A stretch of DNA of 64,000 nt, taken from Mobula hypostoma. Its lineage: Eukaryota. The notes under the pieces were generated by a model, which was not told the DNA's origin, ran no database searches, and saw only the letters and a list, made by a program, of their open reading frames with translations. Each line of letters begins with the position of its first letter. Position 1 is the stretch's first letter. This document shows positions 1 through 63,477 of the stretch, piece by piece. Position numbers and translations under genes: made by a program. Where the stretch lies: positions 155,126,001 to 155,190,000 of the forward strand of contig NC_086097.1 in assembly GCF_963921235.1 (NCBI RefSeq), in the 5' to 3' direction.

Positions 1-79
1 GGATCAAGGGCATCATCATTGTGTTGTTAAGCACTGGTTTTTATGATCCTAAGCAGTTCCAGTGAAGGAATACCATGAC

Positions 80-212
80 GTTTCCAATACAAGAGAGCTA
101 GTCATTGACTTCAGGAAAGGAAGAGATGCTCATCCTCCAGGTTACATCAACGGTGATGAGGTCAAGAGGGTTGAGAGCTTCAGGTTCCTAGAAGTAGACA
201 TCATCAATAGGC
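80..212 (+). mobile_element. Rex1/Babar LINE RT C-terminal fragment
   Basis: Translates as TRELVIDFRK...YINGDEVKRVESFRFLEVDI, typical of the Rex1 post-RT region. Confidence 0.7.
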
Positions 213-329
213 TGTATAATGGTTAGACTTTGGTGAGAACAGGTGGAGGTTCTAAGTAAGTTTCTATCAAGTGTTTTTTCTCTTTGTCTAGAAATGCATA
301 CAGTAGCTAGTGCAGTGAGAATAGATCCA

Positions 330-1080
330 GAATGAGTGGTATGTTCTTCATGTAAGATCTGGGAACTCTAGGAAACTTCCAGTCTCCTTGATAACTATAT
401 CTGCATGAAGTGCATTGAGCTCAGCTCCTTAGAGACCATGTTAAAGAACTGGAACTGCAGCTGGATGACCTTCGGTGCTCATAAGGGAGAATGAGGAGTG
501 ATAGATAGGAGCTACAGGAAGGCAGTAGTCACACCTAAGTTGCAGGATGCAGGAACAGTACCTGATTGACTGTCAGGAGAGGGAAGGGAATAGGCAGTCA
601 GTGTTAAGTACCACTGTGTCCATGCCCCTGAATAATAAGTATATAACTTCGGCTCTTGAACCAAAAGGGGTAACTTTACACAACTTCACTTGACCCATTG
701 AAATGTTCCCACAACCTATGGACTAATTTCAAGCACTCTTCATCTCATATTCTCAATATTTATGGTACTTATTTATTATTTTTATTTCTTTCTTTTGTAT
801 TTGTACTGTCTGTTGCCTTTTGCACACTGGTTGAATGCCGTTAGTACGGTCCTTCAGTGATTCTATTATTTTGTTATTCTATTATTCTATTATGGATTTA
901 TTCAGCATGTGCACAACAGAATGAATGTCAGGGTTGTATATGGTGACATATATGTAATTGATAACAAGTTTACATTGAACTTTGGATTCCGTTTGTGAGG
1001 TTGGGGGCGGGGGGGGAGTGACTTGCCTAGGTGAAGCCGTGGCAACAGGGTCTCTGGTACTGAGTCTGGCTCCAGTGGTT
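330..1080 (+). mobile_element. CR1 LINE ORF1 remnant (zinc finger/leucine zipper), split by a Rex1 tail
   Basis: VVCSSCKIWE...YICMKCIE...VKELELQLDDLR and PLNNKY motifs; sequence resumes at about 984. Confidence 0.7.
650..983 (+). mobile_element. Rex1/Babar 3' UTR inserted into CR1 ORF1
   Basis: Same 3' UTR as copies near 45125-45405 and 47220-47540; AACTT occurs at both junctions. Confidence 0.7.
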
Positions 1081-1704
1081 GAACCCAATAGAGAAAGGGC
1101 AATTTTGCATTCAGTGTCATGTATTGAACCAGATTTGAATAGGGGGCTTAAGATAAAAGAACACTTAGGAGGTAGTGATCACAATAAGACAGAAGTTTGA
1201 GAGAAAAGCTAAAGTCAAATGTATTAGGATTACAATGGAATGAAGGGAATTACAGAGTCTTGATAAAGGAGCTGGCCAAAATTGATTGGAAGGGGTCACT
1301 AGTAGGGATGATGGCAGAACAGTGATGGTTGGAGTTTCCAGGAGCAATTTAGAAGGTGCAGGATAGGTACATCCCAAAGTATTCAAAAGGGAGGATGAGG
1401 AATCCGTGACTGACAAGGGATGTCAAAGACAACATAAAAGCAAAAGAAAGGGTACATTATAGAAGAAAACAGGGGGAAGTTAGAGGATTGGGAAGATTTT
1501 AAAAATTAACAGAAGGCACCTAGAAAAACATATGGAGAGAAAAGATTATCTATGAAGGTAAGCAAGGCAACAATATAAAAAAGGACACCAAAAGTTTTTT
1601 TTTCAAATATATAGAGAGTAAAAGACAGGTGAGAATGGATATGAGATCGCTGGAAGATGATGCAGGAGAAATAGTAATGGGAGACAAGAAATGGCTGATG
1701 AATT

Positions 1705-2387
1705 TGTAAGGGGTTTCTTCTTTTATGTTACTGCATAGGCTAATTAAAATGGCTTCTTTGTTGTGTTAACTGCTGAGAAAGTTCTCTCGCTAGCAGCTTG
1801 TTTGGGTTATATTATTGATAAGAGAAAGAACGATAAATTGGGATAGATGTTATTCTTTCTTGTGTGTCTGTAAGCTATTGTGATGCATGGGTTTTTGGGG
1901 AGAAGGCGCGATGAGGAGAGAGAGAGTGGATGCGATGTTGTGAGCTGGCCAACGAGGCAGACCCCGAGGCAGACCCTGAGCTGAAGTCCGAGGTCTAGGG
2001 TCTTCAGCAAGGAGAAGAGACAAAGACAGACTCGTGTGGAGTGTCTGGTTGACCACCGTGGTTGGTCCCAGGCAATGGGTCGAGGTGGTCAGAGGGGATC
2101 GAATGGTGAATAGAGAATCGTTACTAGAGTTCCAACTGTTTATGCGTGAAGAGGTTTGGTGCCTTTTACTTTCCTTTTATATTTTATCTCTATTAATTAC
2201 ATAGTTCCAATAATATCTATAAACTGTAATCATTTACTCATATATGGTGTATTGTCTGTTATTTGGCGGGGTGGGGTACATCACACAGCATCCACAACAA
2301 ACACAGTTTGGCAGGGCCGAAGGCTGCTTCTCCAGACGACAGCGAGTTGAGCAAGCCTGAGGCTTACCGGGGGGGGGGGGGGCTACA
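1705..2387. mobile_element. Solo LTR (683 bp), probably Gypsy type
   Basis: TGTA...TACA termini; AATT at 1701-1704 and 2388-2391; removing it restores the CR1 sequence GATGAATTTAATAAG. Confidence 0.9.
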
Positions 2388-3422
2388 AATTTAATAAGGA
2401 CTTTGTGTCACTGTTCACTGTGGAAGAAGATGCTAGCAGTATGCCAGAAAATCAAGAATTTTAAGGGGCAGAAGTGAGTATAGTGTTTTTACTAAGGGAA
2501 GTTGCTTGGGAAGCTGAAAGGTCTGAAGGTAGATAAATTACCTGGACGAGATGGAATGCAGCACTGGGTTATGAAAGAGATGGTGGAGCTGTTATTAATG
2601 ATCTTTCAAGAATCACTGGATTCTGGAATGGTTCTGGAGGAATGCAAAATCACAAATGTCACTCCACATTTTAAGAAGGGAGGGAGGCAAAAGAAAGGAA
2701 ATTAAAGGGCAGTTAGCCTGACTTCAGTGGTTGGGAAGATCTGCAAATCCATTATTAAGGATGAGATTTTGGGGTACTTGGAGGCCCATGATAAAATATG
2801 CCAAATTCAGCACAGTTTCCTTAAGAGAAAATCCTGTCTGACAAATCTGTTAGAATTCTTTGAGGAAATAGCAGGCAGGGTAGACAAAGGAGAGTCAGGA
2901 GATGTTGTTTACTTGGACTTCAGAAGGCCTTTGACAAAGTGCTGAATATGAGGCTGCTTAACAAGATAAGAGCCCATGATATTACCTAAAAGATGATGGA
3001 TTGAAGACTGGCTGACTGGTAGGAGGCAGTTTGTGAATAAAGGGGGCCTTTTCTGGTTGGCTGCCAGTGTCAGATGGTGTTCTGCAGTGGTTGGTATTGG
3101 GACCACTTCTTTTCAACATTATATGTCAATGATTTGGATAATGGAATTGATGGCTTTATGGATAAGTTTAAGGACAATACGTAGAAAGGTGAATGGGCAT
3201 GTAGTGTTGCGAAAGCAAGGTTTTTGCAATAGGATGTAGACAAATCAGGGGAATAAGCAAAGAAGTGGCAGATAAATATAGTGTTGGGAAGTTTAGGGTA
3301 ACGTACTTTGGTTGAAGTAATAAAGGCATAGACTATATTCTAAATGGGGAGCAAGTTCAAAAATCATGCAAAGGCACTTGGAAGCCCTCGTGCAGGATTT
3401 CCTAAAGGTTAACTTGCAAGTT

Positions 3423-3700
3423 CTATTTAATTATTTATTGACATACAGCACAGAATAGGCCCTTCGGCCCATTGATCCACACTGCTCAGCAATCCCCTGT
3501 TTTAATTCCAGCCTAATGACAGGACAATTTCCAGTGACCAATGAACCTACCAACTGATATATCTTTGGACTGTAGAGTTAGCTAGAGCACTCAAAGGAAA
3601 CCCACACAATCACAGGGAGCATTTACAGGCAGCAGCAAGAATTGAACCCAGGTCACTGGTACTTAATGTTGTGCCAACCACTACACTATGATGCTGCCCC
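3423..3700 (-). mobile_element. tRNA-derived V-SINE (HE1-like)
   Basis: Minus strand carries A-box TAGTGTAGTGG, B-box GGTTCAATTC, a central GGGTTTCC...CAGTCCAAAGA V-domain-like block and a CR1-like tail ending in (AAAT)n. Confidence 0.8.
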
Positions 3701-4382
3701 ATGTTTGAGTCGGTGGTAAGGAAGGCAATGTTGGCATTCATTTCGAGAGGACTAGAATACAAAAGCAAGAAGCAGATCTGTAATGCTAAGGATCTATAAG
3801 GCTTTGGTCAGCCTGCACTTGGAGTATTGTGAGTAGTTTTGGGTCCATTATCTCAGAAAATATGTGCTGGCTTTGGAGAAGGCCCAGAAGAGGTTTACAA
3901 GAATGATTCCAAGAATGTAAGGTTCAACATATAAGGAGCGTTTGATGGCTCTAGGCCCGTACTCGCAAGAGTTTAACTGATTGAGAGGGGATCTCATTGA
4001 AACCTATTGAATATTGAAAGGCCTAGATAAATTGGATGTGGATAGGGTGTTTCCTATAGAGAGGGAGTCAAGGACCAGATTGCATAGCCTCACAATAGAG
4101 GGACATCCATTTCGAAAAGAGATGAGGAGAAACCTCTGTTGCCAGAGGGTGATGAATCTGTGGAATTCATTGGCACAGACAGTTGTGCAGGCCATGTCAT
4201 TGGGTTTAGTTAAGGTGGAGGTTGATCATTTCTTGATTAAACAGGGCGTCAAAGGTTATGGGGAGAAGGCAGGAAAAGGGTTTGAAAGGAATAATAAATT
4301 GTCCATGATGGAATGGCAAAGCAGACTTGATAGGCCAAATGGCTTAATTCTGCTCCTTTGTTTTCTGTTCTTATGGTCTTAT

Positions 4383-4972
4383 AAATGCAAGGATGTAATG
4401 CTCAAGCACTATAAGGTATCGATAAGGTATTAGTCAGACGACACGGAATACTGTGTGCAGTTTTGACCCCCTTTATCTAAGAAAAGTTGTTCTCATTTTG
4501 TAGACAGTCCAGAAGAGGTTTATGAGAATGATTCTGGGAATGAAAGAGTTAATGTATGAGGAGTGTGCAATGGTTCTGTGCCTGTACTCACTGGAGTTTA
4601 GAAGAATGAGGAGGAATCACAGTGAAACCTATTAAATATTGAAAATCTTAGATAGAATGGATATGGAGAGAATTTCTTTTATTGTGAGGGACTTTGGGTC
4701 CAGAGGGCACAGCCTCAGAATAGAAGGATGTCCATTTAGAAAAGAGATGAGGGGGAATTTCTTTAGGTAGAGGGTGGTGAATCTGTGGAATTTATTGCCA
4801 GAGACACCTGTGGAGGTCAAGTCATTGGGTATACTTAAAGTGGGCATTGATAGTTTCTTGATTTGTCAGGGTATCAATGCTTATGGGAAGAAGGCAGGAG
4901 AATGGGGTTGAAAGGAATAATAAATCAGCCATGATCAAAAGGTTCTGCAAGCTTATGGCTTATGGTCTATGA
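4383..4972 (+). mobile_element. CR1 LINE 3' fragment
   Basis: RVVNLWNLLP-coding region and CTTATGG tail. Confidence 0.85.
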
Positions 4973-5559
4973 CCCTCACAATTTTTTATAACTCTATAAT
5001 GTCTGTATGTCTTTTAAGCTTGTGACAAAGAGGGATGTGATGGAATTGCTTCTCCTGTCTTTCTAAGTGATAGAGATTATATGTCTGGGAGAAGTTATCA
5101 TGGAAAACCTAACTCAGGACATGCAAATAAATCAAACATAAGATACTGTGCTTCAGACCAATAGTTGGAAGGGAAATCTGAAGGGAAGTATTGAGAAAGA
5201 AACTAAGAGAATAGTTGCTATAATTTTACCTTTCAGATTAGGTACGGAGTGCTGGCTTTCTCTATTGGCCCACATGGTATGTATTCTTCAAATTCCAGCT
5301 TTGTCTCCTGAACCAGCTGTCCTGGGATGGGATTGAATTTGTTATTGTTTTTTTCACTTTTATTGATGTTGATGGTGCTATTGAGCTAAATCTGTAAGGA
5401 AGATGACTCATTCAAAAGATGTGCATGTACTTTGCCAGAGGTTGGATTGAAGCAGAAAATGCTGCAGAAGGGAGAAAATCTTGATGCAGAATGGAAATTC
5501 TGAAATTTCTAAAAGCTAAAACTTTCCTGAAGCCGGAGGCATGCTGTTTGCTTCCAGCA

Positions 5560-7298
5560 GCTGGAGAGATTGTGGAGGCATTAACAATGATCTTTCAACA
5601 ATCGATGGATTCTGGCATTTTACTGGATGACTGGAAAATTGCAAATGTTACTCTGCTATTTAAGAAGGGTGGGAGGCAGCAGAAAGGAAACTATGGCCCT
5701 GTTAGCTTGACATCAGTGGTTGGTAAGTTGTTGAAATTGATGGTTAGGGATGAGATTACGGAGTACCTGGAGGCACATGACAAGATAGGCCAAAGCCAGC
5801 ATAGTTTCCTGAAAGGAAAATCCTGCCTGACAAACCTACTGCAATTCTTTGAGGAAATTACAAGCAGGGTAGACAAAGTAGATGCAGTAGGCGTGGTGTA
5901 CTTGGATTTTCAGAAGGTCTTTGACAAGCTGCCGCACATGAGGTTGCTTAGCAAGATAAGTGCCCATGGAATTACAGGGAAGTTACTAGCATGGGTGGAG
6001 CATTGGCTGATCAGCAGAAAGCAGAGAGTGGGAATAAAGGGATCCTATTTTGGCTGGCTGCCGGTTACCAGTGGAGTTCCACAGGAGTTGGTGTTACAAT
6101 GAATGTCAATGATTTGGACTATGGTATTAATGGTTTGTGGCTAAACTTGTCGGTGATACAAAGATAGGTGGAGGAGCAGGTAGTGTTGAGGAAACAGTGC
6201 CTGCAGAGAGACTTAGATAGTTTTGGGGAATGGGTAATGAAGAGGTAAATGAAATACCATGTTGGAAAGTGTATGGTCACGCAGTTTGGTGGAAGAAATA
6301 AATGGGCAGACTATTATTTAGATGGGGAGAGAATTCAAAATGCAGAGATGCAAAGGGACTTGGGAGTCCTTCTGCACGATACACTAAAGGTTAACCTCCA
6401 GCTTGTGTCGGTTGTGAAGAAGGCAAATGCAAAGTTGGCATTCATTTATAGAGGTATAAAATATAAGAGTAGGGATGTGATTTTGAGGCTCTATAAGGCA
6501 CTCGTGAGACCACACTTGGAGTATTGTGTGCAGTTTTGGGCTCCTTAAAGGTCCCGAGTTCGAATCCAACTGGCTCCCCTGCACACTTTCCAGCCGTGCT
6601 GGGTTACCAGCTGGTGATCTCTTTGGAAACTCACCCGGCAGAAGGCAATGGCAAACCACTGCTGTAACTTCTCTGGTACGCGGTTCCCCACTACGTCAGA
6701 GAAGCGTGGGGGAAAATCGTCCGCTAACCGGAGAAACTCCAGATGTGATGTACCTTTCCTTTATTTTAGAAGGGATATACTGACATTGGAGAGGGTTCAG
6801 AGAAGATTCATGAGAATGCTTCCAGGAATGAAAGGGTTACCATATGAGGAACGTCTGGCAGCTCTTGGGCTGTATTCCCCAGAGTTCAGGAGAATGAGGG
6901 GGGATCTCATAGAAACATTCGGAATGTTAAAGGACCTGAGCAGGTTAGATATGGCAAAGTTATTTCCCATTGTAGGGGATTCTAGGACAAGAGGGCACGA
7001 CTTCAGGACTGAAGGGCGTCCATTTAGAACTGAGATGTGGAGGAATGACTTTAGTCAGAGGGTGGTCAATCTGTGGGATTTGTTGCCATGAGCGGCTGTG
7101 GAGGCCAAGTCATTGGGTGCATTAAAGGCAGAGATAGATAGGTTCTTGATTAGCCAGGCCATCAAAGGGTATGGGGTGAAAGCAGGGGAGTGGGGATGAC
7201 TGGAAAAATTGGATCAACCCATGATTGAATGGCAGAGCAAACATGATGGGCTGAAAGGCCTACTTCTGCTCCTGTATCTTATGATCTGATGGTCTTAT
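5560..7298 (+). mobile_element. 5'-truncated CR1 LINE (RT and 3' UTR)
   Basis: ORFs 5491-6102 (WKIANVT..., YLDFQKVFD, SGVPQ), 6249-6548 (LVRPHLEYCVQFWAP) and 6648-7091 (RGDLIETF); CR1 tail. Confidence 0.92.
6548..6760 (+). mobile_element. 5'-truncated tRNA-derived SINE with RTE-type motif, inserted in CR1
   Basis: B-box GAGTTCGAATCC, GAAGGCAATGGCAAACCAC motif and ACCTTTCCTTT tail; it splits the CR1 sequence GCTCCTTA/TTTTAGAAG. Confidence 0.7.
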
Positions 7299-8573
7299 AG
7301 GTCTCTTTTAGCTATTACCAATGAGCAGCATGTGCCAACAAGAGATGAGATCTTAGTGAGAGGATAGTTCTGGGGTAGGGGTAACATCCTTACTGGAAGG
7401 AAGAAAGTTGGCATAAGATTTGATTGGAGATTTCTAATGGTCTGAAGAGCAATAAGTCAGCATTGTCCAACCCCACAACATTAACCACTGCTGCAACTGT
7501 TTTGTGAGTGGCCTCAAACAATTACTTTCAAGGTCTGATGTCTGAATATCTGAAGAAATTATAACGAAAGTGAAACAACATAAATTAAGGTTTGGAAAAG
7601 CCTTTATGATAAATTTGAGCCTGGGCTAAAATAAAATAACTTCCCACCAATTGGTCTGTTTCAGAACAGACATTCTATTATCTAGCAGAGCAAGGTAATA
7701 ATAGTCACCAGAATGCCCATTTAGCTGAATTGCATTGTTTTCACATTTGTAGCACTTCAGGCAGTGCTTCAGAGCTATCACGTATCTTGTAGGTAGATGA
7801 GACTGTGATTTTTAAGTTCAAATTTGAATCAAGGTTTAGGAGCAAAATTCACAAGTCTCTGTAAAGAGGAAATATAGAAATGAAAATGCCGTTAATTTGA
7901 AGGTGAAACTACAAGTGTTAAAGTATGTCCAGTCTACAGTTCATATGCCTTGGTGTTGTCCATTAGAATCTCTAGCACCATTTTCATTTCAGACCGGTGA
8001 TCTGGTTTATGAAAAATGTCAGTTCAGAATTTTTAAACAGTTGAACAGTATCCTTTTGCATTTAATTGAATTTAATCCACTGCTTAGGCCATCTTAGTGT
8101 ATATTAACATGTGGAGAAACTTTATTGTATGAGAACAAATATCTGTCAGTTCATACTCCATACAAGCAAACATATTTTTTTAAAATCTGAAAGCATGAAT
8201 GAGGTTTTTAAAGTTTTCTTGGTATAGGATGCAAGATGCTAATGAAAAAAAAGAAATCACTAAGTAGTGTAATCAAGTTAATGTTAGAAAAATTGGAAAT
8301 CTAGTAAATTATTTTATGAGATTCAATTGCACTGACAGGAAGACAGGGTCTCCAGCAGTGGGGTTAGCATCATAGGATACTGGTTTGAAATAACTGGTAA
8401 GTGAGGTGTTATAAAAAAAATGTGTTTGCAAAGCGAGTTGTTGTGGCCTGGAATTCTTTCTCTAAACGAATGGATAAAGCCCCAAAGTAGATAAGATTAG
8501 ATATGTATTTATGAAACAGTAAAGATCTATAGAGATAAAACCATTGAAGGAAACAAATGGAAAGCTTTTTACA

Positions 8574-9421
8574 AATGACATGCACAAGGTTCTATGACCT
8601 GTGGCTAAACAATTTTGCACATTAAAAATAATGATAACAAAATGATGATAAGAAGGCATCCAGGAGTTTGTGATAGGAGGACCAACAATATATAGTTAAC
8701 TAATAAAATCTGAAAATTAAGAAAGAAAAGGACATGATGGGCTATGTGTTGTCTGTATTCAATGATTCCATTGTACAATAAATTGTGTCAAAACATCACA
8801 ATGAAATTCTAATTCCTATGTGTAGACATGTCTGGCTTGCTTTAAAGTTTTACAGACCATGGAGTACTACTTTACTTAACACTACTAAAGGCAATAGTTG
8901 ATGAATTCTGTCTTCATCCCCTTACTGAGTTGTTGTTTCAGTGTTAATTGTTACTTGGACAATGCTTCCATGCACCCGAGTGCATGTGTGTCCATACATT
9001 TTGTTAGGTGGTAGGGCAGAAGTTGATAAGTAAAACCCTATAGACTCTGTGAACTTGAAACCAAAACAGAAAATGCTAACTCTTGTTTTTCTTTCCACAA
9101 ATGCTGTCTGACCTGCTGAGAATTCCCAGCATTTTCTTCTATTTCACCATTTTGTTTTTGTTTTTATTAGGACAGATTAAGGTGTAACTACAGATCTGAT
9201 TAATTTCTAAAATTTATTGCAGGGTTGACAAAGAAAATAGATTGGAATTTTGCTGGAATGCAACAATGAATGACATGCACAAAGTGCTATGACCTGTGGG
9301 TATACAATTTTGCACATAATGATAACAAAACGATGATAAGAAGGCATCCAGGAGTTTGTGATAGGAGGACCAACAATATATAGATAACTAGTAAAATCTG
9401 GAAAAGTAGGAAAGAAAAGGA
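8574..9421 (+). repeat. Diverged direct duplication of about 155 bp (8574-8732 and 9269-9421)
   Basis: Both copies read AATGACATGCACAA...GAAGGCATCCAGGAGTTTGTGATAGGAGGACCAACAATATATAG...GAAAGAAAAGGA. Confidence 0.9.
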
Positions 9422-19604: not shown

Positions 19605-22600
19605 ATGGAGTCTACTATTAATTTTGTCTCTTGGAATACTAACAGTCTTAATCATCCAATAAAAAGGAAAAAAATCTTTTAAGTATTCCGGAGACTTAAA
19701 GCACATATTCTATTTTTACAAGAGACCCATGTGCGGAGGGGGGACAGATTATGTTTTTTTAAGTTCTGGAAGGATAAACACTTCCATTCGAATTCCAATG
19801 CCAAAATTTGAGGAGTTTCTATTTTATAGATCCCTCAATCACTTTTGTGCAACATGATATTATTTCTGATCCGAATGGTAGATTGGTTAGTGGTTTACTC
19901 TTTAATAAAATGGTAGTTTTGGTTAATGTCTATGCTCCTAACCTGGACTATCCGGAATTTTATAAATCATTATTTAATTTGTTCCCGAATTTGAATGAGT
20001 TTTCACTAATCTGGGGCAGAGATCTTAATACTTGTTTATCCTCATTATTGGACCGTTCGGCTCCTTTACAGACTCTACCCAATAAATCTGCAACCTTGAT
20101 TAATTCATTTCTCTCAGATTCCGGGTCAACGGACATTTGGCGTTTTTTGCATCCTCAGGAAAAAGATTTCTCTTTTTTTTCACATGTTCATCATTTCTAT
20201 TCAAGAATTGATTATTTTTTTATTGACTCTCGTCTTATTTCTTCAGTGGTTAAATGTGAATATGACTCTATAACCATTTCAGATCATGCTTCACTTAAGC
20301 TTTCTATTAAAATATTGGCCAATACACAAAATAATAGACAATGGTGTTTTAATTCGCTGTTGCTTCAGGACTTGGATTTTGTTAACTTTATGAATGAACA
20401 GATTGATCTCTTTTTTACAATTAACTGTACAGAGGATATATCCATGAATACCCTTTGGGATACTTTTAAAGCTTATATTCGTGGCCAGATCACCTCGTAC
20501 TCTGCTGCTTTGAGGAAAAGGTTGAAGGAGGAGGAGCTGGTTCTTGTGGATAAGATTAAGGAAATTGATAAGAAATATGCTACAGCTCCCTCTGAGAAGT
20601 TGTATAAACAAAGAACTGAACTTCAAATGGAACACAGTTTATTACTTTCGTCCTCTATTGCAAATCAATTAATGAAAACGAAGCGAATTTTATATACACA
20701 GTGACAAAGTTGGTAAACCGCTGGCTAATCAGTTGAAGACTAACTCTACTAAATTTCAAATTAATCAGATTTATAGTCAAAAAGATCGACTGACATTTGA
20801 TCAAGCTGAGATTAATCAATCCTTTTTTGACTTTTATTCCGACTTATATCAATCAGAGTCTCCACGAGATTCTAAACATGTGTTTGACTTTTTAGATAAC
20901 CTAGATTTCCCTAAGATTTCACACGATATATCTTCTATGTTAGACACTTCCTTTACCACTGATGAGATTAAGAATGTTATTTTTTCTATGAACCCGGGGA
21001 AAGCTCCTGGTCCTGATGGGTTTACCGTGGAATTTTATAAATTTTTTGCATCCTCATTAATCCCTTGGCTATTCAGGGTTCTGGAGGCCTCATTAAAACT
21101 TGGTAAACTACCTGAATCCTTTTATAGAGCATCGATCTCTTTAATATTAAAGAAGGATAAAGACCCTGCTCAATGTGCATCTTATTGACCAATATCTTTG
21201 TTAAATGTTGACTCTAAAATTTTTTCTAAATTATTAGCAAACAGACTAGAAAAAGCACTTCCTTATATTATCTGGGAAGACCAAACGGGCTTTATTAAAA
21301 ATTGTTACTCTTTTTATAATATTCGTACACTTTTAAACATTGTCTATATCCCGTCACAAAATGATCCTGAATGCGTAATTGCCCTAGACGCTGAAAAAGC
21401 CTTTGACAGGGTCGAATGGCCTTACTTACTTAAGGTGCTTGAAATGTTTAACTTCAGCCTGAAATTTATATCCTGGATCAAATTGTTATATCATTCTTCT
21501 ATGGCCTCAGTTCGTACTAACTCTTTAAATTCACCTTTTTTCCCTCTTTTTCGAGGTACCAGACAAGGTTGTCCTCTTAGTCCTTTATTATTTGATATTG
21601 CATTAGAACCTCTTGCAATTGCTATTCGAGAATCTCCTAATATTATTAGTATAACTCGTGGTTTAAAGTCTCATAAAGTATCACTTTATGCTGATGACTT
21701 ACTTTTATATATTTCTAATCCTCAAAAATCTATTCTTGCAGCTTTAGATTTATTAGCACAATTTAGTCTTTTTTCAGGTTATAAGTTAAATCTCAGTAAG
21801 AGTGAACTGTTCCCGATTAATAAGCAAATTCCCTTATATCAGAACCTCCCGTTTAAATTGGGTAATGATCATTTTTCATATCTTGGGATTAAAATTACCT
21901 GTAAACATAAGGATTTATTTAAGACTAATTTCCTACCCTTAATTGATCACATTACACAACTTTCATTTAAATGGTCTCCACTTTATTTAACTTTGATTGG
22001 TCGTATTAATGCTCTTAAGATGTTTATTCTGCCAAAATTTTTATATATATTTCAGGCATTACCGATTTTTGTTCCAAAATCCTTTTTTGACAAAGTTGAC
22101 TCTAAAATTTCTTCATTTATTTGGCAAAATAAAAACCCGAGACTGGGTAGAATACATCTACAGAAAGCTAAGAGAGATGGAGGTTTGGCATTACCAAATT
22201 TTAGATTCTATTATTGGGCAATTAATATTCGACACATGAAATTTTGGTTACTTGACCAAGATACACTATCCATTCCTAAATGGGTAGTATTGGAATTACG
22301 ATCTGCTCAAGGTTATGCACTTGGCTCCATTTTAGGTTCTTCTCTTCCTTTCAATTTGAAACGCCATAAACAGCTTTGTAACCCGATAGTAAAACATACC
22401 TTATGCATTTGGTTTCAATTCCGAAAATTTTTCGATCTTAATCATCTGGGCTAGCGATTCCTATTTTAGGCAACATATTCTTTCCCCCTTCCTCTACGGA
22501 CCATGCCTTTCAAATTTGGAAGACCAATGGTATATCACGGTTTTTGGATTTATTTTTAGATGGCTCCCTTATGTCTTTTGAACAATTATCTAACAAATAT

Positions 22601-23371
22601 AACTTACCAAGAATACATTTTTTAAAATATCTCCAAGTTAGAAATTTCCTAAGTACCATACTTTCTTCCTTTCTGGCGTTACCCCCTACATATATTTTAG
22701 ATACTATGATTAACCTTAACCCAAGTCAGAAAGGTGTAATGGCTATTATTTATAATACTATCATGAAACTTAGGAAAGCTCCTTTCGATAAGATTAGGTC
22801 AGATTGGGAAGAGGAATTGGGCTTCACTATTTTGGCAGATGACTGGGTGTATATTTTACAACTAGTCAATACTTCCTCTATCTGTTCCAAACATTCCCTA
22901 ATTCAATTTAAAATTGTTCTTAGAGCACATATGTCTAAAGATAAATTAGCTCGTTTTTATTCTCATATTAACCCTCTTTGTGACAGATGTCATGGGGAGA
23001 TAGCTTCCTTAACTCATATGTTTTGGTCCTGTCCTACTTTGGAAACTTTTTGGAAAGACATTTTTAATATTATCTCAAAGGTATTGATTACAGATATTTC
23101 TCCCCATCCTATTACCGCTATCTTTGGATTACCTAAGATTTCCAGTAATCTTTCCCCTTCAGCCCATAGAATGATTGCATTTCTTACTTTAATGGTGAAA
23201 AGATGTATTTTACAACATTGGAAGGAGATTAATGCCCCAACTACCTTTTTTTGGTTTTCTCAGATGATACTATGTTTAAATTTGGAAAAAATCAGAAGTA
23301 ATCTTTATGATACTTCAGATAAATTTGAACAGACCTGGAGATCTTTTATTCAACATTTTCATTTAATGTAA
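19605..23371 (+). pseudogene. L1 ORF2 pseudogene (APE endonuclease, reverse transcriptase, CCHC zinc finger)
   Basis: MESTINFVSWN, FLQETH, NVYAPN, SRIDYFF, ISDH, KAPGPDGF, DAEKAFD, RQGCPLSPLLF, YADD and CDRCHGEIASLTHMFWSC; at least 6 stops or frameshifts. Confidence 0.95.
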
Positions 23372-24485: not shown

Positions 24486-24615
24486 GCAAAAAGGTCTGCA
24501 GATGCTGGAAATCCAAGTAATGTACACAAGATGCTGGAGGAACTGAGCACCAGCCAGCAACTATGGAAAAGAGTAAACAGTCAACGTTTCAGGCCAAGAC
24601 CCATCACTAGGACTG
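24486..24615 (-). mobile_element. Solo Penelope terminal-repeat copy with degenerate hammerhead
   Basis: GATGCTGGAAATCCAAG...GCTGGAGGAACT...ACGTTTCAGGCCAAGACCC...GGACTG, same family as 49705-49822. Confidence 0.75.
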
Positions 24616-25136
24616 TTCATATATCTTGCTTTAATGCTTTCTGGTTCTGATGAAAGATCATTGACCTGAAAGGTTAATGCCATTTCTCTCTGCAATGGAG
24701 ACTCCATGCTTGTCAAGTTGTTCCAATATTTTCCATTTATATTTAATTATGAATCATTGCTTGCCTGACCTTTCGTTGAAAAGGAACATTGCAACATTAT
24801 TTGAGATCCTGTTTCCATCATAGTATCCCATAGGTGGCATCCAAACACCACTATTTGATTTTGAGTAATACTGCAAAAAATCACTGGATTGTATTGAAGC
24901 ATTACACAGATTTTTTTTAAATAGCATGCCTCCTAGGCAATCAGAATAAATTAGGTATTTACATATAAATACTGTATTTTTTTCTCATAAAAGGTCACTG
25001 GAGTCTCACCAACAGTCAAGCAGAAAATCCTGGAGTAATGTCATGGTTATTAGGTAAATACTTGCCACCCACTGAAGCTGAGACTGATTTAGGTTTCCTT
25101 TTCAACCTCTTGTCAGTGCTGATCCAATACCTGCTT

Positions 25137-28619: not shown

Positions 28620-28950
28620 TCTTCTTTGAAGTGTAAGAAAATGAAAGCCAAATTACTCACAGCAATGTTCCACAAACCAAAGTGTGATAATGACCAGATC
28701 ACAAACAAGAAAATCTGCAGATGCTGGAAATCCAAGCAACACACATAGTATGCTGGAGGAACTCAGTAGACCAGGCAGCATCTATGGAAAAAAGTAAACT
28801 GTCGACGTTTCAGGCCAAAACCCTTCAGCAGGACTGATAATGACCAGATGTCTGTTTTAGAAATACTGACTGAAGAGTGAATATTGGCCAGGACACTTTG
28901 AAGCAATACAGTACATAAAATCCAAGAAGGTCATTTTTACTTGTGGTGAA
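28620..28950 (-). mobile_element. Ancient Deu-domain SINE (SacSINE1/AmnSINE1-like) split by a Penelope repeat
   Basis: CACAGCAATGTTCCACAAAC...GTGATAATGACCAGAT...CTGTTTTAG...AATATTGGCCAGGACAC recalled as the Deu core. Confidence 0.6.
28700..28834 (-). mobile_element. 135-bp Penelope terminal-repeat insertion
   Basis: 15-bp TSD TGATAATGACCAGAT at 28685-28699 and 28835-28849. Confidence 0.88.
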
Positions 28951-29961: not shown

Positions 29962-31320
29962 CACAAACATGAAAAAAAATCTACAACTGCTGGGAATCCA
30001 AAGCAACTCACACAAAATGCTGGCGGACTCAGCAGACCAGGCAGCATCTAGCGAAAAAGTAAAGAGTCGGTGTTTCAGCCCAAGACCCTTCTTCAGGACT
30101 GAGAGGGAAGGGAGGAGATGTCTGAATTTAAAGGTGGGGGTTAGATGAAAGGGGCTAGCTGGAAGGTGATAGATAAAGTTGGGTGGGAGGGAAAAGACAA
30201 GGGCTGAAGAAGAAACCCCTGATAGGAGAGGAGAGTGGACAATAGAAAAGGGAGAATGAGGAGACCCAGGGGAAGCAACAGGCAAGTGAGAAGAAACAAA
30301 AGATCAGAGTGGGGAATAGAGGAGTCACAGTTGCGGGGGGGGGGGGGTCTTTGTTCACCAGAGGAGAAATCAACGTTCATACCATCAGGCTGGAGGATAC
30401 CCCAATGGAATATAAGATGATGGTTCTCATGCCAACAGTGGCCCATCTTGAAGAGACCATGGAGGGAGTAAGATATGGCCCTTGTGGCTAAAGGGATCAG
30501 GGAGTATGGAGGGAAGGCTGGTACAGGGTTCTGAGTTGGATGATCAGCCATGATCATACTGAATAGCGGTGCAGGCTCGAAGGGCCGAATGGCCTACTCC
30601 TGCACATATTTTCTATATTTCTATGTTTCTATCAACATGTTGGAAAGGGAATGGGAATGAGGATTAAAATATTTGGCCACTGCGAAATCCCGCTTGTGAT
30701 GGATGGTGCGGCGATACTCAATGAAGCAGTCCCCCAATTTATGACAGGTCTCACCAACGTAGAGGAGGCTGCATCAGGAGCGCCGGACGCAATAGACAAC
30801 CCCAGCAGATATGCAGGTGAGGTGTTGCCTCACCTGGAAGGATTGTTTGTGGACCTGAATGGAGGTGATGGAGGAGGTGTACGGGCAGATGTAGCACTTA
30901 TGCCACTTGCAGGATTAGGTGCCAGGAGGGATGAATGGGCAAGGGAATCGCAGAGGGAACAATCCCTGTGGAAAGCAGAAGGGAAGGAGGAAAAGATATG
31001 TTTAGTGGTATGGTCCCTTTGAAGATAGCGGATGTTGTGGAGGATAATGTGTTGGATATGAAGGCTGAATTGTAGGTAAGGACTAAAGGGACTCTATCAC
31101 TAATATGACAGTGGGGAGATGGGCTAAGCGCTAAAGTATGGAAATGGCTGCGATGCAGCGAGGACACAATCAATTATAGAGGGAGGAAGACCACATTCTT
31201 CAAAGAATTAGGACATTTTTGATCCTCAGGAATGGAAAGCAGCATCTGGAAAGTAGATGAGGTGGAGGTGAAGAAACTGACAAAAGGAAATGAAACTTGT
31301 TTCAATGGCTCATCTGAAAG
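29962..31320 (-). mobile_element. Penelope-like element relic (GIY-YIG endonuclease region and terminal repeat)
   Basis: Minus strand 30720-30803 gives GVVYCVRRS*CSLLYVGETCHKLGDCF; DRVPLVLTYN and LQPDGMNVDFS motifs. Confidence 0.85.
30466..30631 (+). mobile_element. CR1 3' tail inserted in the Penelope element
   Basis: GGCTCGAAGGGCCGAATGGCCTACTCCTGC followed by (TTTCTATG)n. Confidence 0.85.
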
Positions 31321-37944: not shown

Positions 37945-38112
37945 AAACATAAGAGATTCTATAGATGCTGGAAATCTAGAGCAACGCACACACACACAAA
38001 ATGCTGGAGGAAGTCAGCAAGTTGGGCAATATCTTTAGAGGAGAGTAAACAGTTGACGTTTTGGGCAGAGACCTTTGATCAGGACTGGAAAGGAAAGGGG
38101 AAGAAGCCGGAA
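37945..38112 (-). mobile_element. Penelope terminal-repeat copy
   Basis: GATGCTGGAAATCTAGAGCAAC...CAAAATGCTGGAGGAA...GATCAGGACTGGAAAGG. Confidence 0.75.
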
Positions 38113-39090: not shown

Positions 39091-41220
39091 TCCAATCTGA
39101 ACATTAAAAAATACCGCTAGTCTTCAAAGTCAGTTGACTTGAAATTCCAATATCTCAGGGAAGGCCGAATGCAAACAGCAGCGAAGGGTTATGCTCTGTC
39201 CAAGTCTCGACAAGCACTACGACGACAAGTATGGAGTTAAGTACTATCACGTTTAAATAATAATTAGCTGACATGTGCAAATTCACAAGCGCAATTGTCC
39301 TATCTACTGAGTTGACAATTCTGTGGTTGTGACAATGACTAAACACTGGCATTGATCTAAATTATTCTTGCAGCATTAAAAAACCCTTTCTGCAACAATA
39401 ATCTCAGTATATTCCTTGATTAATATAAATGATTTAAACTCCGTAATTCACACATATATTTCACATATGAATTATATCCAGTTCTCGTTACAGAACAATC
39501 TGTAAGATTACTCTGCTAGACTATTTCACCTTGTGTACTTTTGAGGGAATTGAAAGGGTTTTGGTTAACTAATTTGCTTGATTCATGTCTTATTGTTCTC
39601 ACCTTGCAGAACTACGATGTATAAGACCGTAAGATAGAGGAGCAGAATTAGGCTATTTGGCCAATTGAGTCTGCTCCACCATTTCATCATGGCTCATCCT
39701 TATATCAGGTGTCGCTGTCTGTTGTCTCTTAGACACAGGTAGTCAAGTCAGCACCATGTCCGAACAGTTCTTTAAAGAGCACCTGAATGGAGAGGATGAG
39801 GATATTTTGTCCACTGCTGGCTGGCTTAGGGTAACAGCCACTACCGGTCTTGATATTCCTTAACCTGGGTATCTAGAGCTCGAGGTTCAAGCGATAGGCA
39901 TGAATACACCCCAATTGTGGCTTTCTAGTAGTCAGGGATCCCATTAGCAGTGAACAACCTGTCCCAGGCAGAGTCGACATGACTGGTCTGAAGGTGAAAA
40001 TGGAAAAATGTCATTTTCTGCAGTCAGAGGTCAAGTTCCTGGACACCAGGTATCAGCCAAGGGGATAGGCACAGATCCCGAGAAGGTCTCGGCTGCTCAG
40101 CAGTGGTCAGTACCATCTACGGTCAAAGACTTGAGATCAGTTTTCGGCTTTTATGGTCATTATAGACGGTTCATTCAGGGATTCTCAAAGATTGCAGGTC
40201 TGCTGCATGATGTAGTGAATCTGTGTCTTTAATACAGGGAGACTTAGTAAAACAAACCATCTGTTAAAAGTCTTGGATGGAAGAATGTCAAACTGCCTTT
40301 GGCTTGCCCAAAGAGAAACTGGCCAGTTCACCCATCCTCGGCTTTGATGATTTCACACAAATTTTTATCATGGAGACCGATGCCAGCAGTCGTGGACGAG
40401 GAGCTGTTTTATACCAGCAACAGGGAGAGACAAAGAGGGTTATTGCATATGCAAGCCGATGATTGAGAAATGCTGAAAGGAATGATAAGAATTGTAGCAG
40501 CATGAAATTAGAGCTGCTTACACTAAAGTGGGCTGTAGCAGAGAAGTTTCGTGGTTACTTATTGGGTTTCAAATTCACCATAATAACTGTGACAGTAATC
40601 CGTTATCCCGCTTGAAAACTGCCAAGTTGGGAGCAATTGAGCAGAGATGGATCTCACAGTTGTCAGAGTTTGACCTTGATGTTTAGTATTGTCCCGGTCG
40701 GAGCAATACCGTAGCTGATGCTCTCTCTACACAGCCATTTGGAGAGGTGTCTGAGCCTATTCGAGAGGAAGCTGAGTCTGACGGGTCTGTGGCAATCTGT
40801 AGTCTGATCATTTGCAGCGTCGATCTTGATCCGGCACTGGTTACCGCTGGTCTTCAAAGCTGTAAGGTTAAGTAAATCCGAGCTGGTAGTAGTGATGCAA
40901 GGAAACACCCTATCCCTTCCATGCTATTCTAATGGAGACTTGCACACTTTTCAGCAGCAAGGCCCTGTGTTAAGTGTCTTCAGAAACTTATGGGACAGAA
41001 AAAGAATGCCGGCAAGGAATGTAAAGCTCTGCCGAAACTGGTTTTGTCTCTGTTAAAGCACTGGGACAGTATCAGGGAGCAAATGGGGTCACTGTGTGCT
41101 GTAGTTGAGGATGAGAAGCATGGGGAATGTTATCAGCTTCTGCCACCTACCAGCTTGAGGAATAAAGTGTTCGGGTATGTACATGACTCTATGGGTCATC
41201 AAGACAAAGAGCATACTCTA

Positions 41221-41356
41221 TGTAATATTGATGTGACTCGGACACCGCTGTAGATTGAACAACCACGTTTATTCACCAGACTTCCACTTTTTACTTTTTC
41301 CACGTCCTGAGGTCGTACGCACTCTGACGCTACGAATACTCACACAATACAGTACA
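41221..41356 (-). mobile_element. Very short solo LTR (136 bp) inside the Gypsy integrase
   Basis: TGTA...TACA; CTCTA at 41216-41220 and 41357-41361; AATAAA on the minus strand. Confidence 0.85.
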
Positions 41357-42046
41357 CTCTACACATGTTGAGCAGCAGATGTCTTTGGATGGGCACGCAC
41401 GAGGATGTGGCACAGTGGATCAAAAATTGCCCGTGTTGTGTTTTAACTAAAATGCCACACCCTGAGATCCGCCCACCCACCCCGTGAAGTTATTTCTTGC
41501 TTCTAAGCCACTGGAAGTTGTTGCTGTAGATTTCACTGTGCTTGAGCCGGTAACTGATGGGCATGAGAAAGTTTTAGTAGTCACAGACATTTCTACAAAA
41601 TTCCCCCACGCGTTCCCCACTTGGGAACTACAGCAAAGGTGCTCTTGAGGGAATGGTTTTTGAAGTACGGTGTTCCTGAGAGGTTGCATTCTGACCAGGG
41701 CTGTAACTTTGAAAGTGAGGTCATAACTGAGCTTTGCAAACCGTACGGGGTAAAGAAAAGTCGTACTACACCCCAGTGTGTACTAAACACTCAGTGTGAG
41801 CGTTTCAACAGGGCGATGCTTGATTTGTTGCCTACGTTGTCTCCAGAAAAGAAATGCAAGTGGCCAGAGCATCGACTCGAGTTAGTGTATGCGTATAATG
41901 TGACGCCTCACGTAACCACCGGATATTCCCCTTATTACCTACTGTTCTGTGTTGATCCCCACTTGCCTGTGGATGCTCTGCTGGGGCAGGAACAGTCTGT
42001 AGACAGGAAATAGCCACACAGAAGAAACAACTGAATGATGCTCATG

Positions 42047-49503: not shown

Positions 49504-49704
49504 CCTTCCCTACAAATTAAAGATAACTTCTCATTCTTCCTAAAGTGTAGTGACAGCAAAAAGATGTAGTGACCTCATTGCGGCCTCAGGACAACTTTAT
49601 GAAGGTTTATCGTAACTTTCTGCTTTTTGCTCATTACTTCTCCTAGTGAAGCCCAGATTACTGCTCTGCCAACTTCTCTCACAACAGAAACACAAAAATC
49701 TATA

Positions 49705-50778
49705 GGTGCTATAAAATCCAAAGCAACACACACAAAGTGCTGGAGGAACTCAACAGGCCGAGCAGCATCTATAAAAATGAGAATCAGTCGACGTTTCGGA
49801 ACAAGACCCTTCTTCAGGACTGGAAAAGGAAGGGGGAAGGTGCCAGAATAAAAAGGTTGGGGAGTGGGGAAGTGGAATGAGGATAACTAGAATGTAATAG
49901 GTGAAGCCAGGTGAGTAGGAAAGGCAAAGGGCTGGGGAGGAAAGAGTCTGATAGGAGAGGAGACTGGACCATTGGAAAAAGGGAAGGAGGGGACCTAGGG
50001 GTCCCCTAGGGGAGGTGATGGACAGGTGAGAAGAGGAAGAGGCCAGAGTGGGGAATTGAAGAAGAGGGAAGTTGGAGGGATTTTTTTTAACAAAAAAGTG
50101 AAATTGATATTCATGTCAGCAGGTTGAAGGTACCCAGATGGAATATAAGGTGCTGGTCTTGCACTCTGAGATTGGCCTCATCGTGGCAAGAGAGGAGGCC
50201 ATGAATTGACATGTCGGAACAGGAGTGAGAATGGAAATTACAATGCTTAACCATCGGTAAGTTAAGCTTCTGACCGATGAAACAGAGGTGCTCGACAAAG
50301 CAGTCCCCCAGTTTATAGTGGATCTCACCAATGTAGAGGAGGCCACATCAGGAGTCGGGAGCACCAGACATAATAGACGACCCCAGAAGGTTCGTAGGTG
50401 ACGTATTGCTTCGCCTGGAAAGAGTGTTTCAGGTGCTGAATGGAGGTGTGGGAGGAGTTGAATGGACAGGGTTCAGAACTTTGGCTGCTTGTAGGGATAA
50501 GTGCTGGGAAGGCAATTAGTGGGAAAGGACGAATGGACAAGTAAATCAGGATGGGAGCCAATCCCTGTGGAAAGTGGAGCTGTGGGGAGGTGAAGATGTG
50601 TTTGGTAGGATCCCTTTGAAGCTGGTGGAAATTGTGGCAAATGATGTGTTCGATGCAGAGGCTCATGGGTGGTAGGTTAGGACAAGAGGAACTCTATCAT
50701 TGTTGAGGCTTCAGGAAGATTGGTAGAGTCTGGATGTTTGGGAAATCGAGGAGATGTGGGTGAGGGCAGCATCAGTGA
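49705..50778 (-). mobile_element. Penelope-like element relic (GIY-YIG region and terminal repeat)
   Basis: Minus strand gives GVVYYVWCSR...LLYIGE; collinear with 29962-31320. Confidence 0.87.
49785..49822 (-). ncRNA. Minimal type-I hammerhead ribozyme motif
   Basis: CAGUC-CUGAAGA-AGGGUCUUGUUCC-GAAA-CG-UC-GACUG: 5-bp stem I, intact CUGANGA and GAAA core, GUC cleavage triplet. Confidence 0.72.
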
Positions 50779-62646: not shown

Positions 62647-63477
62647 AAAGAAACATCTAAACAAGCCTGATTCATTTTGGAAACAATTCCTGTGGACTGA
62701 TGAAGTTAAAATAGAACTTTTTGTCTGCAATGAACAAAGGTATGTTTGGAGAAAAAAGGGTGCAGAATTTCATGAAAAGAACCCCTCTCCAACTGTTAAG
62801 CATGGGGGTGGATCGATCATGCTTTGGGCTTATGTTGCAGCCAGTGGCATGGGGAACATTTACTGGTAGCGGGAAGAATGAATTCAATTAAATACCAGCA
62901 AATTCTGGAAGAAAACATCACACCATCTGGAAAAAGCCAAATATGAAAAGAGGATGGCATCAACAACAGGATAATGATCCTAAACACACCTCAAAATCCA
63001 CAGTGGACTACCTCAAGAGGCGCAAGCTGAAGGTTTTGCTTTGGCCCTCACAGTCCCCTGACCTAAACATCATCGAGAATCTGTGGATAGACCTCAAAAG
63101 AGCAGTGCATGCAAGACGGCCCAAGAATCTCACAGAATTAGAAACGTTTTGCAAGGAAGAATGGGCAAAAATCTCCCAAACAAGAACTGAAGGTCTATTA
63201 GCTGGCTGCAAAAGGCGTTTACAAGCTGTGATACTTGCCAAAGGGGGTGTTACTAAGTACTGCCATGCAGAGTGCCCAAACTTTTGCTTCAGGCCCTTTT
63301 CCTTTTTTGTTATTTTGAAACTGTAAAAGATGGAAATGAAAAAGTTTTCTTAAAATATTAAAGAAATGTGTCATCTTTAACTTTATGCCATTTGGAATTT
63401 AGTTCATCTTTTACTCGCTTGGCTGTTCACAGTAACAGAAATTTTGACCGGGGTGCCCAAACTTTTGCATGCCACTG
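62647..63477 (+). mobile_element. 3' half of a Tc1 DD34E transposon with IR/DR right end
   Basis: FWKQFLWTDE, KHGGGSIMLW, QQDNDPKH...SPDLNIIE (34 residues between D and E); GTGCCCAAACTTTTGC near 63272 and 63453; ends CACTG followed by TA. Confidence 0.92.

Follow-up and report, generated by a model that had tools for sequence, protein, structure and literature searches.

A minimal hammerhead motif in the terminal repeat of a decaying Penelope-like element of Mobula hypostoma

The Motif and the Insertion That Carries It

On the minus strand of the window (the whole 64-kb stretch analyzed here) lies a 38-nt motif with the organization of a minimal type-I hammerhead (table 1; its nucleotides are numbered by the established hammerhead convention). 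The sequence, the 5-bp stem I, both core segments, and the GUC triplet read exactly as the first-pass annotation of this DNA had reported them, and the extra A that it saw before stem II is likewise present, as a bulged A at 49810. GAAA occupies 49797-49794 and is followed by CG and then by UC, with H17 at 49790; the cleavage point predicted from these letters lies between 49790 and 49789. Minimal hammerheads of this kind were described in 2014 in the pseudo-LTRs (pLTRs) of metazoan Penelope-like elements, or PLEs (Cervera and De la Pena; PMC4209133), and the focal motif shares with the published ones the type I architecture, a helix I of 4-5 bp (here five Watson-Crick pairs), a core of the form CUGANGA ... 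GAAA ... UH, an unpaired nucleotide separating position 9 from 10.1, a helix II closed by G10.1-C11.1, the absence of loop 3, and a palindrome at 15.2-16.2 (here ACGU, with C/G there in the family majority as well). The loop-less palindrome and the extra nucleotide, both remarked on in the first-pass annotation, are published hallmarks of the class and not a novelty. Stem II is reduced to G-C, G-C, and G.U, followed by U.U; the family majority has four pairs, the Schistosoma motifs have a longer stem II of 7-8 bp (PMC4209133), and the focal stem II and loop 2 together hold three differences from the majority sequence of the old subfamily to which this copy belongs.

Table 1. Features of the focal insertion and other family copies in the window
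Feature	Position	Strand	Basis or remark
Frameshifted C-terminal ORF remnant with stops, ~220 aa (linker and GIY-YIG endonuclease)	50132..50773	-	tblastn; translation
Pyrimidine-rich 3' UTR part of the pseudo-LTR	49823..50110	-	sequence, comparison with family copies; boundaries approximate
Pyrimidine tract ending in CAG, 3' splice-site-like	49820..49840	-	sequence; predicted pairing with purine-rich core
Minimal type-I hammerhead motif, 38 nt	49785..49822	-	sequence; fold; sole full-descriptor match in window
Stem I, 5' arm	49818..49822	-	sequence; first three bases double as the CAG closing the pyrimidine tract
Core C3-A9 (CUGAAGA, 49817-49811) and bulged A (49810) before stem II	49810..49817	-	sequence
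Stem II and loop 2, GGG-UCUUGU-UCC, decayed	49798..49809	-	three pairs including one G.U
G12-A15.1, loop-less palindrome (49794-49791), and GUC triplet	49790..49797	-	sequence
Stem I, 3' arm	49785..49789	-	sequence
Conserved 3' part of terminal repeat, extending to the more distal of two family end points (PLE "tail")	49694..49784	-	boundary approximate
Second truncated family copy, motif broken (U16.1 and palindrome lost)	29995..31291	-	
Terminal-repeat copy, A6C sublineage	28729..28844	-	
Terminal-repeat copy, core broken	37974..38111	-	
Terminal-repeat copy, core broken	24510..24616	-	

When folded in isolation the 38-mer is predicted to form stems I and II at -7.2 kcal/mol but no stem III, which agrees with the earlier expectation that stem III needs a second copy. 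A full descriptor (stem I of at least 4 bp, stem II of at least 3 bp, and a palindromic insert) has exactly one match in the window, the focal site. The genome search with such a descriptor that the first-pass annotation proposed was run on a 400-kb sample and gave eight matches; the shuffled sequences gave none in 19 of 20 cases and one in the remaining case. The two core boxes alone occur 11 times in the window, not above the chance expectation of 8.26, and a covariance-model match, the other outcome looked for, failed to appear: an Rfam scan of the window returned no hammerhead among its seven matches at E <= 10.

The motif follows the stop codon of a broken ORF at a distance of ~290 nt. 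Amino acids 785-1001 of an intact family protein align by tblastn to 50773-50132 in three segments and two frames, at 47-60% identity (E = 1.4e-38), and this bears out the GIY-YIG remnant previously noticed upstream of the motif; a Pfam search with a 78-aa piece of the remnant alone gave no match. Since only the C-terminal part of the ORF aligns, the focal insertion is a 5'-truncated piece of ~1.1 kb without a reverse transcriptase (RT). Sequence comparison thus confirms a PLE of Neptune type, truncated at its 5' end and frameshifted, with the focal motif in its 3' terminal repeat, and the motif's initial identification as a Penelope terminal-repeat minimal hammerhead was right, given the element context and the ORF remnant. 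A single motif in a dispersed 1.1-kb fragment is not the layout of a non-LTR retrozyme, which consists of short tandem units with a complete hammerhead in each (bioRxiv 10.64898/2026.07.22.740005, a 2026 preprint that counts retrozymes in one cartilaginous fish).

Five other same-strand copies in the window cover the motif and all are broken. The segment 41080-58571 recurs ~204 kb farther down the contig with 97-98% identity, as judged from 20 kb of the duplicate. The window also contains, all on the plus strand, a comparatively well-kept non-LTR retrotransposon at 19778-23371 (a run of long frames matching RVT_1 at E = 4e-34 as well as zf-RVT), an LTR-type element remnant with weak Integrase_H2C2 and rve matches at 40933-42013, a DDE_3 transposase fragment at 62892-63326 (E = 3e-11), and LINE-type remnants at 1-8000, where a strong positive GC skew accompanies an RVT_1 fragment at 5485-6099.

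Full-Length Members of the Family

A search of the genome with an RT fragment yielded 260,838 preliminary candidates. Among 16 long-ORF loci fetched, at least seven have the pLTR-ORF-pLTR arrangement with the motif region at both ends, ~3.5 kb apart, and two (L121 and L123) have uninterrupted ORFs of 1014 and 1016 aa. In intact members a single ORF combines the RT with a C-terminal GIY-YIG domain, as in the endonuclease-bearing PLEs; the matches to RVT_1 (E = 2e-5) and GIY-YIG (E = 5e-4 to 2e-3) are both weak and under the Pfam cut-offs. The best named relatives are from a bamboo shark (68-72% identity).

The Neptune clade (Craig et al. 2021; PMC8557442) resembles this family in its single ORF with DKG, RT, linker, and C-terminal GIY-YIG containing a CxxC, and also in its partial tandems and inverted 5'-truncated partners. 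The family proteins show the DKG, a CX4CxxC linker that conforms to the CX2-5CxxC given for the clade, and the CxxC inside the GIY-YIG motif. From the linker and GIY-YIG motifs the element is classified as Neptune-type, with the qualification that the linker is given for Nematis as well as Neptune (PMC8557442). Pseudo-LTR direct repeats, inverted partners, and a 30-40 bp tail are all found in the family, and like the minimal hammerheads of PMC4209133 its motifs flank the element in both repeats and are for the most part scattered singly, in truncated elements. Reports of such motifs include Xena, Poseidon, and Neptune elements of fish (PMC4209133).

The best studied element for comparison is the Poseidon element PAc of Anolis carolinensis, which also has a pLTR hammerhead (Frangieh et al. 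2024; PMC11167929). Two internal reverse-transcription starts produce the PAc tail, and the 3' ends of young copies here are correspondingly bimodal: counted from the cut site, 40 of 75 fall between +50 and +78 and 31 between +95 and +115, two clusters ~40 nt apart. However, PAc belongs to the Penelope/Poseidon clade and has its start codon inside the ribozyme, whereas our family has the CX4CxxC linker and a first ATG ~135 nt behind the cut site. In the young subfamily with long open ORFs (L121-L136), the base of stem II is mostly G.U or an alternative A-U rather than G-C. The literature search found no paper that names shark or ray Penelope hammerheads, and the host group is not named in the covered parts of PMC4209133 (two of its three supplements included); the family may be listed in supplement file 1 of the latter or by Lunse, Weinberg, and Breaker (2017), both of which lie outside that scope.

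Abundance and Decay of Inserted Copies

The impression that the repeat is very abundant proved justified. A terminal-repeat profile built from 59 copies has 94 matches in 580 kb, which extrapolates to ~560,000 genome-wide, the sample being 58 stretches of 10 kb taken at round coordinates on large contigs and hence not formally random; one exact 34-mer occurs 6,605 times. The motif is covered by 67 of the 94 matches, and 15 pass the core, palindrome, and stem tests, from which ~90,000 sequence-intact motifs can be extrapolated (95% range 50,000-148,000; from 15 in 580 kb), compared with the 4,000-9,000 given for coelacanth and Xenopus (PMC4209133). Intact motifs are concentrated in the young copies: all tests were passed by 14 of 22 young and by one of 45 old copies.

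The focal copy belongs among the old ones: its closest 201-nt relatives, duplicate aside, are 79-87% identical. In a set of 51 old copies (the 45 sampled plus six from the window, focal copy excluded) mismatches outside CpG affect 60 of 457 core positions (13.1%), 88 of 652 stem positions (13.5%), and 150 of 1391 downstream positions (10.8%; p = 0.93 and 0.17), and when the A6 column is left out the core value is 9.9% (p = 0.65 against downstream, 0.08 against stems). As the core mismatches about as often as the stems and the downstream sequence, inserted copies appear to decay without clear selection. The young copies show a weak trend toward conservation, with one mismatch in 193 core positions against 27 in 974 (p = 0.07).

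Could the focal copy nevertheless have been domesticated as a host ribozyme? Its core is intact in a subfamily where only 5 of 45 sampled copies keep theirs, and its 38-mer is identical in the duplicate 204 kb away. However, that duplicate is 97.9% identical over 14.5 kb, which makes an identical 38-mer unremarkable, and with ~270,000 old copies in the genome thousands would keep the core by chance. Moreover, stem II has decayed, and the 41 of 68 long window ORFs that were scanned contained only transposon domains and no host gene, although short exons would escape such a scan. We consider domestication highly improbable; on the sequence comparisons the focal copy probably owes its intact core to chance and has meanwhile lost pairs of stem II.

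Selection on the Motif in the Element Lineage

The first reading had been made to depend on excess conservation of the core in family consensus sequences, and this was found: the majority sequences of the old and young subfamilies differ at 3 of 38 motif positions and 19 of 67 downstream positions (p = 0.013; for the far downstream part alone 12 of 53, p = 0.086). The three motif differences are a stem I C-G replaced by U.G, the free N7, and a stem II G-C replaced by G.U.

More distant relatives give a deeper perspective. In 80 metagenome loci whose proteins are 33-63% identical, a relaxed descriptor has 20 matches (18 sense, 2 antisense) distributed over 18 loci and none in any of 30 shuffles. 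Ten distinct relative motifs, hand-picked from the descriptor matches with near-duplicates dropped, were compared with the focal one: the stem positions show 3-5 pair types across these 11, stem II is closed by G-C in all of them, the palindrome insert is CG in eight, CCGG in two, and GC in one, and the bulge is an A in nine of the ten that have one. Pairing, palindrome, and core were demanded by the descriptor itself; the sequence variety, the strand bias, and the G-C closure were not. The relatives' motifs mostly follow the ORF by ~100-330 nt, on the sense strand. Of 33 loci seven were dropped for short flank; among the 26 whose 3' flank is 300 nt or longer, the strict motif is found in only 8 and a damaged one in three more. 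The proposed covariation of stems I and II thus holds across relatives but not within the sampled copies of this genome, where none was seen. The same core together with different, still-pairing stems in distant relatives indicates that selection maintains the motif along the element lineage, as does its presence at both ends of young copies with intact ORFs.

These comparisons bear on the simplest objection, that the motif came about by chance or is ordinary repeat sequence with no RNA function in any element. The chance-level count of core boxes in the window, the silence of Rfam, and the lack of covariation within this genome's sample would all be expected if this were so. Against it, descriptor matches far exceed the shuffles in both the genome sample and the relatives, distant relatives carry different stem sequences at a similar place and strand, and the class is already published (PMC4209133). 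At the class level we regard chance as refuted by the descriptor matches and varied stems of the relatives, and there is scarcely any likelihood left to it. One narrow pattern, aimed at hammerhead families whose stem II differs from this one, gave three matches in the genome and three in the control.

Folding and Cleavage

Published work on the class suggests how the motif might operate: in a transcript that spans both ends of an element the two ACGU palindromes would pair into a shared 4-bp helix III, and the resulting strand-swapped dimer would have two catalytic centres, each cleaving after GUC. PMC4209133 proposed such a dimer and gave weak in vitro evidence for it; the PLE variants of Lunse, Weinberg, and Breaker (2017), as related in PMC6765202, have a short palindromic stem III like the present one and cleave as dimers. 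Cleavage is likely to be slow and dependent on the element's own protein, because the naked RNA is predicted to have a masked core and nearly all genomic copies derive from uncut RNA. Once inserted, the motif decays like the surrounding DNA, as the old copies show.

The masking comes from nearest-neighbour folding models, which ignore tertiary stabilization of the junction. In these the swapped dimer of the focal 38-mer lies 1.1 kcal/mol above two monomers and those of young copies 9-10 kcal/mol above; in none of the copies tried did it have the lowest energy among the pairs. In young monomers the core is hidden within a hairpin, and the probability of stem I is ~0 with the upstream pyrimidine tract and 0.5-0.85 without it (0.0 and 0.83-0.85 for the tract at 49820-49840). 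These models fit a ribozyme whose default state is inactive and which depends on the element's protein, as found for the anole element (PMC11167929). The focal copy, which passes every sequence test and is predicted to fold nearer to the open form than the young copies, may cleave in vitro when paired.

The derivation from uncut RNA rests on the young subfamily, in which 51,937 copies are intact across the cut site and 272 start there; the prefix used for the latter count passes about a quarter of random flanks and such starts are thus ~2% at most. Nearly all genomic copies of this subfamily were accordingly made from RNA that was uncut (or rejoined) at the site. In PAc, too, unprocessed RNA is the main insertion substrate, and cleavage is protein-assisted (PMC11167929). 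As a footprint of cleavage the genomic 5' ends (272 at the cut site against 94 three bases downstream) had to be rejected, being mostly inversion junctions: 30 inspected starts at the cut site comprised 24 inversion junctions (control, 5 of 20), one internal deletion, and five without an element match, and microhomology within stem I explains most of the 24. Fold-back insertions joined at this microhomology (L184 ~1470-1530 and L193 ~1500-1590; the class occurs in L167-L196) have on the opposite strand an intact minimal core closed by a long perfect stem I (at least 11 pairs in L193).

The explanation which best accommodates the whole, and to which we assign a probability of about 0.85, is that this is the terminal-repeat hammerhead of a Neptune-type PLE, the focal copy being likely an ordinary and inactive leftover of a truncated, decaying insertion. 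The focal motif is a real, ordinary member of the class published in 2014, in a dead copy, and as one more example of that class is of little import by itself.

Splicing and Host RNA

The pyrimidine tract that abuts stem I ends in CAG, an arrangement like that of the Drosophila virilis Penelope, where an intron is reported to end at helix I (PMC4209133). CAG precedes stem I in 88 of 102 young copies and a TACTAAC-type, branch-point-like site is present in 11 of the 102. It can be imagined that the tract holds the ribozyme off, that splicing or the element's protein switches it on, that a burst of element expression renders tens of thousands of dispersed intact motifs in host pre-mRNAs cleavable, and that A6C, a core change treated below, is an escape variant which spread with its cleavage reduced; we think this improbable. 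Splicing at the CAG was sought as the gate and rejected: in none of the 102 young copies is an upstream donor joined there, the genome has no match to the junction that the best donor-like site (one candidate) would produce, and the ten distant motifs mostly have no adjoining AG. Four contig sets searched with a young copy, a kind of data that cannot show RNA ends, contained no splice-like joint among the matches listed.

Cleavage of host RNA according to copy number was suggested in the first-pass annotation; dispersed intact copies would dimerize in long host pre-mRNAs or between transcripts. Were host RNAs cleaved in this way, transcript stability across the genome would be under the influence of a transposon family. 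The extrapolated ~90,000 intact motifs lend this some appeal, as does the probability of ~0.14 that a 50-kb stretch holds two of them on the same strand. But their expected same-strand spacing is ~77 kb, the window has no second one, and the flanks are predicted to mask the core. Harm to the host would also predict faster loss of the core in old copies and none was seen; dimer activity in vitro is low (PMC4209133) and the anole element shows no RNA-seq ends at the cut (PMC11167929). With old copies lacking excess core conservation, starts at the cut site rare, and no host gene found among the scanned long ORFs of the window, the suggestion is unsupported and we judge such cleavage to be quite unlikely.

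The A6C Sublineage and a Structural Role

An old sublineage carries the core change A6C. Pattern matches with a base other than A at position 6 number 1,671, against 4,295 with A, and the base was C in 85 of the first 100 matches listed (counted by eye). In 20 inspected copies (L320-L339) the flanks are mostly common and the rest of the motif is kept, save for CpG decay. Judged from these matches, the sublineage is amplified to more than 1,000 copies. Its spread with a weakened core favours the view that cleavage is dispensable or minor; the motif could be kept for a structural role in the element RNA (protein binding, RT priming or pausing), with cleavage dispensable in the lineage. Consistent with this, A6C strongly lowers Mg2+ cleavage in other hammerheads (PMC7151607, PMC3088659), catalytic mutants had no effect on in vitro insertion by the anole element (PMC11167929), and the basal pair of stem II is G.U in 13 of 22 young copies. 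On the other side, catalytic nucleotides, and not the stems alone, are kept at 33-63% protein identity, although the descriptor required them; A6 is found in 22 of 22 copies of the young intact-ORF subfamily; and the A6C lineage may have been mobilized in trans. A purely structural role is in our opinion the less probable reading, although it is the alternative we take most seriously beside a terminal-repeat hammerhead that now persists here as a leftover.

What Penelope hammerheads do can profitably be studied in this family, because one genome combines intact young elements, ~90,000 intact-looking motifs, and a widely amplified sublineage whose core is impaired. The same A6C substitution, which the focal copy does not have, is known from the hammerhead of phage Bcep176 (PMC3088659, PMC7151607); there it concerns one phage motif, which was active when assayed with Mn2+, and here a repeat sublineage known from its sequence.
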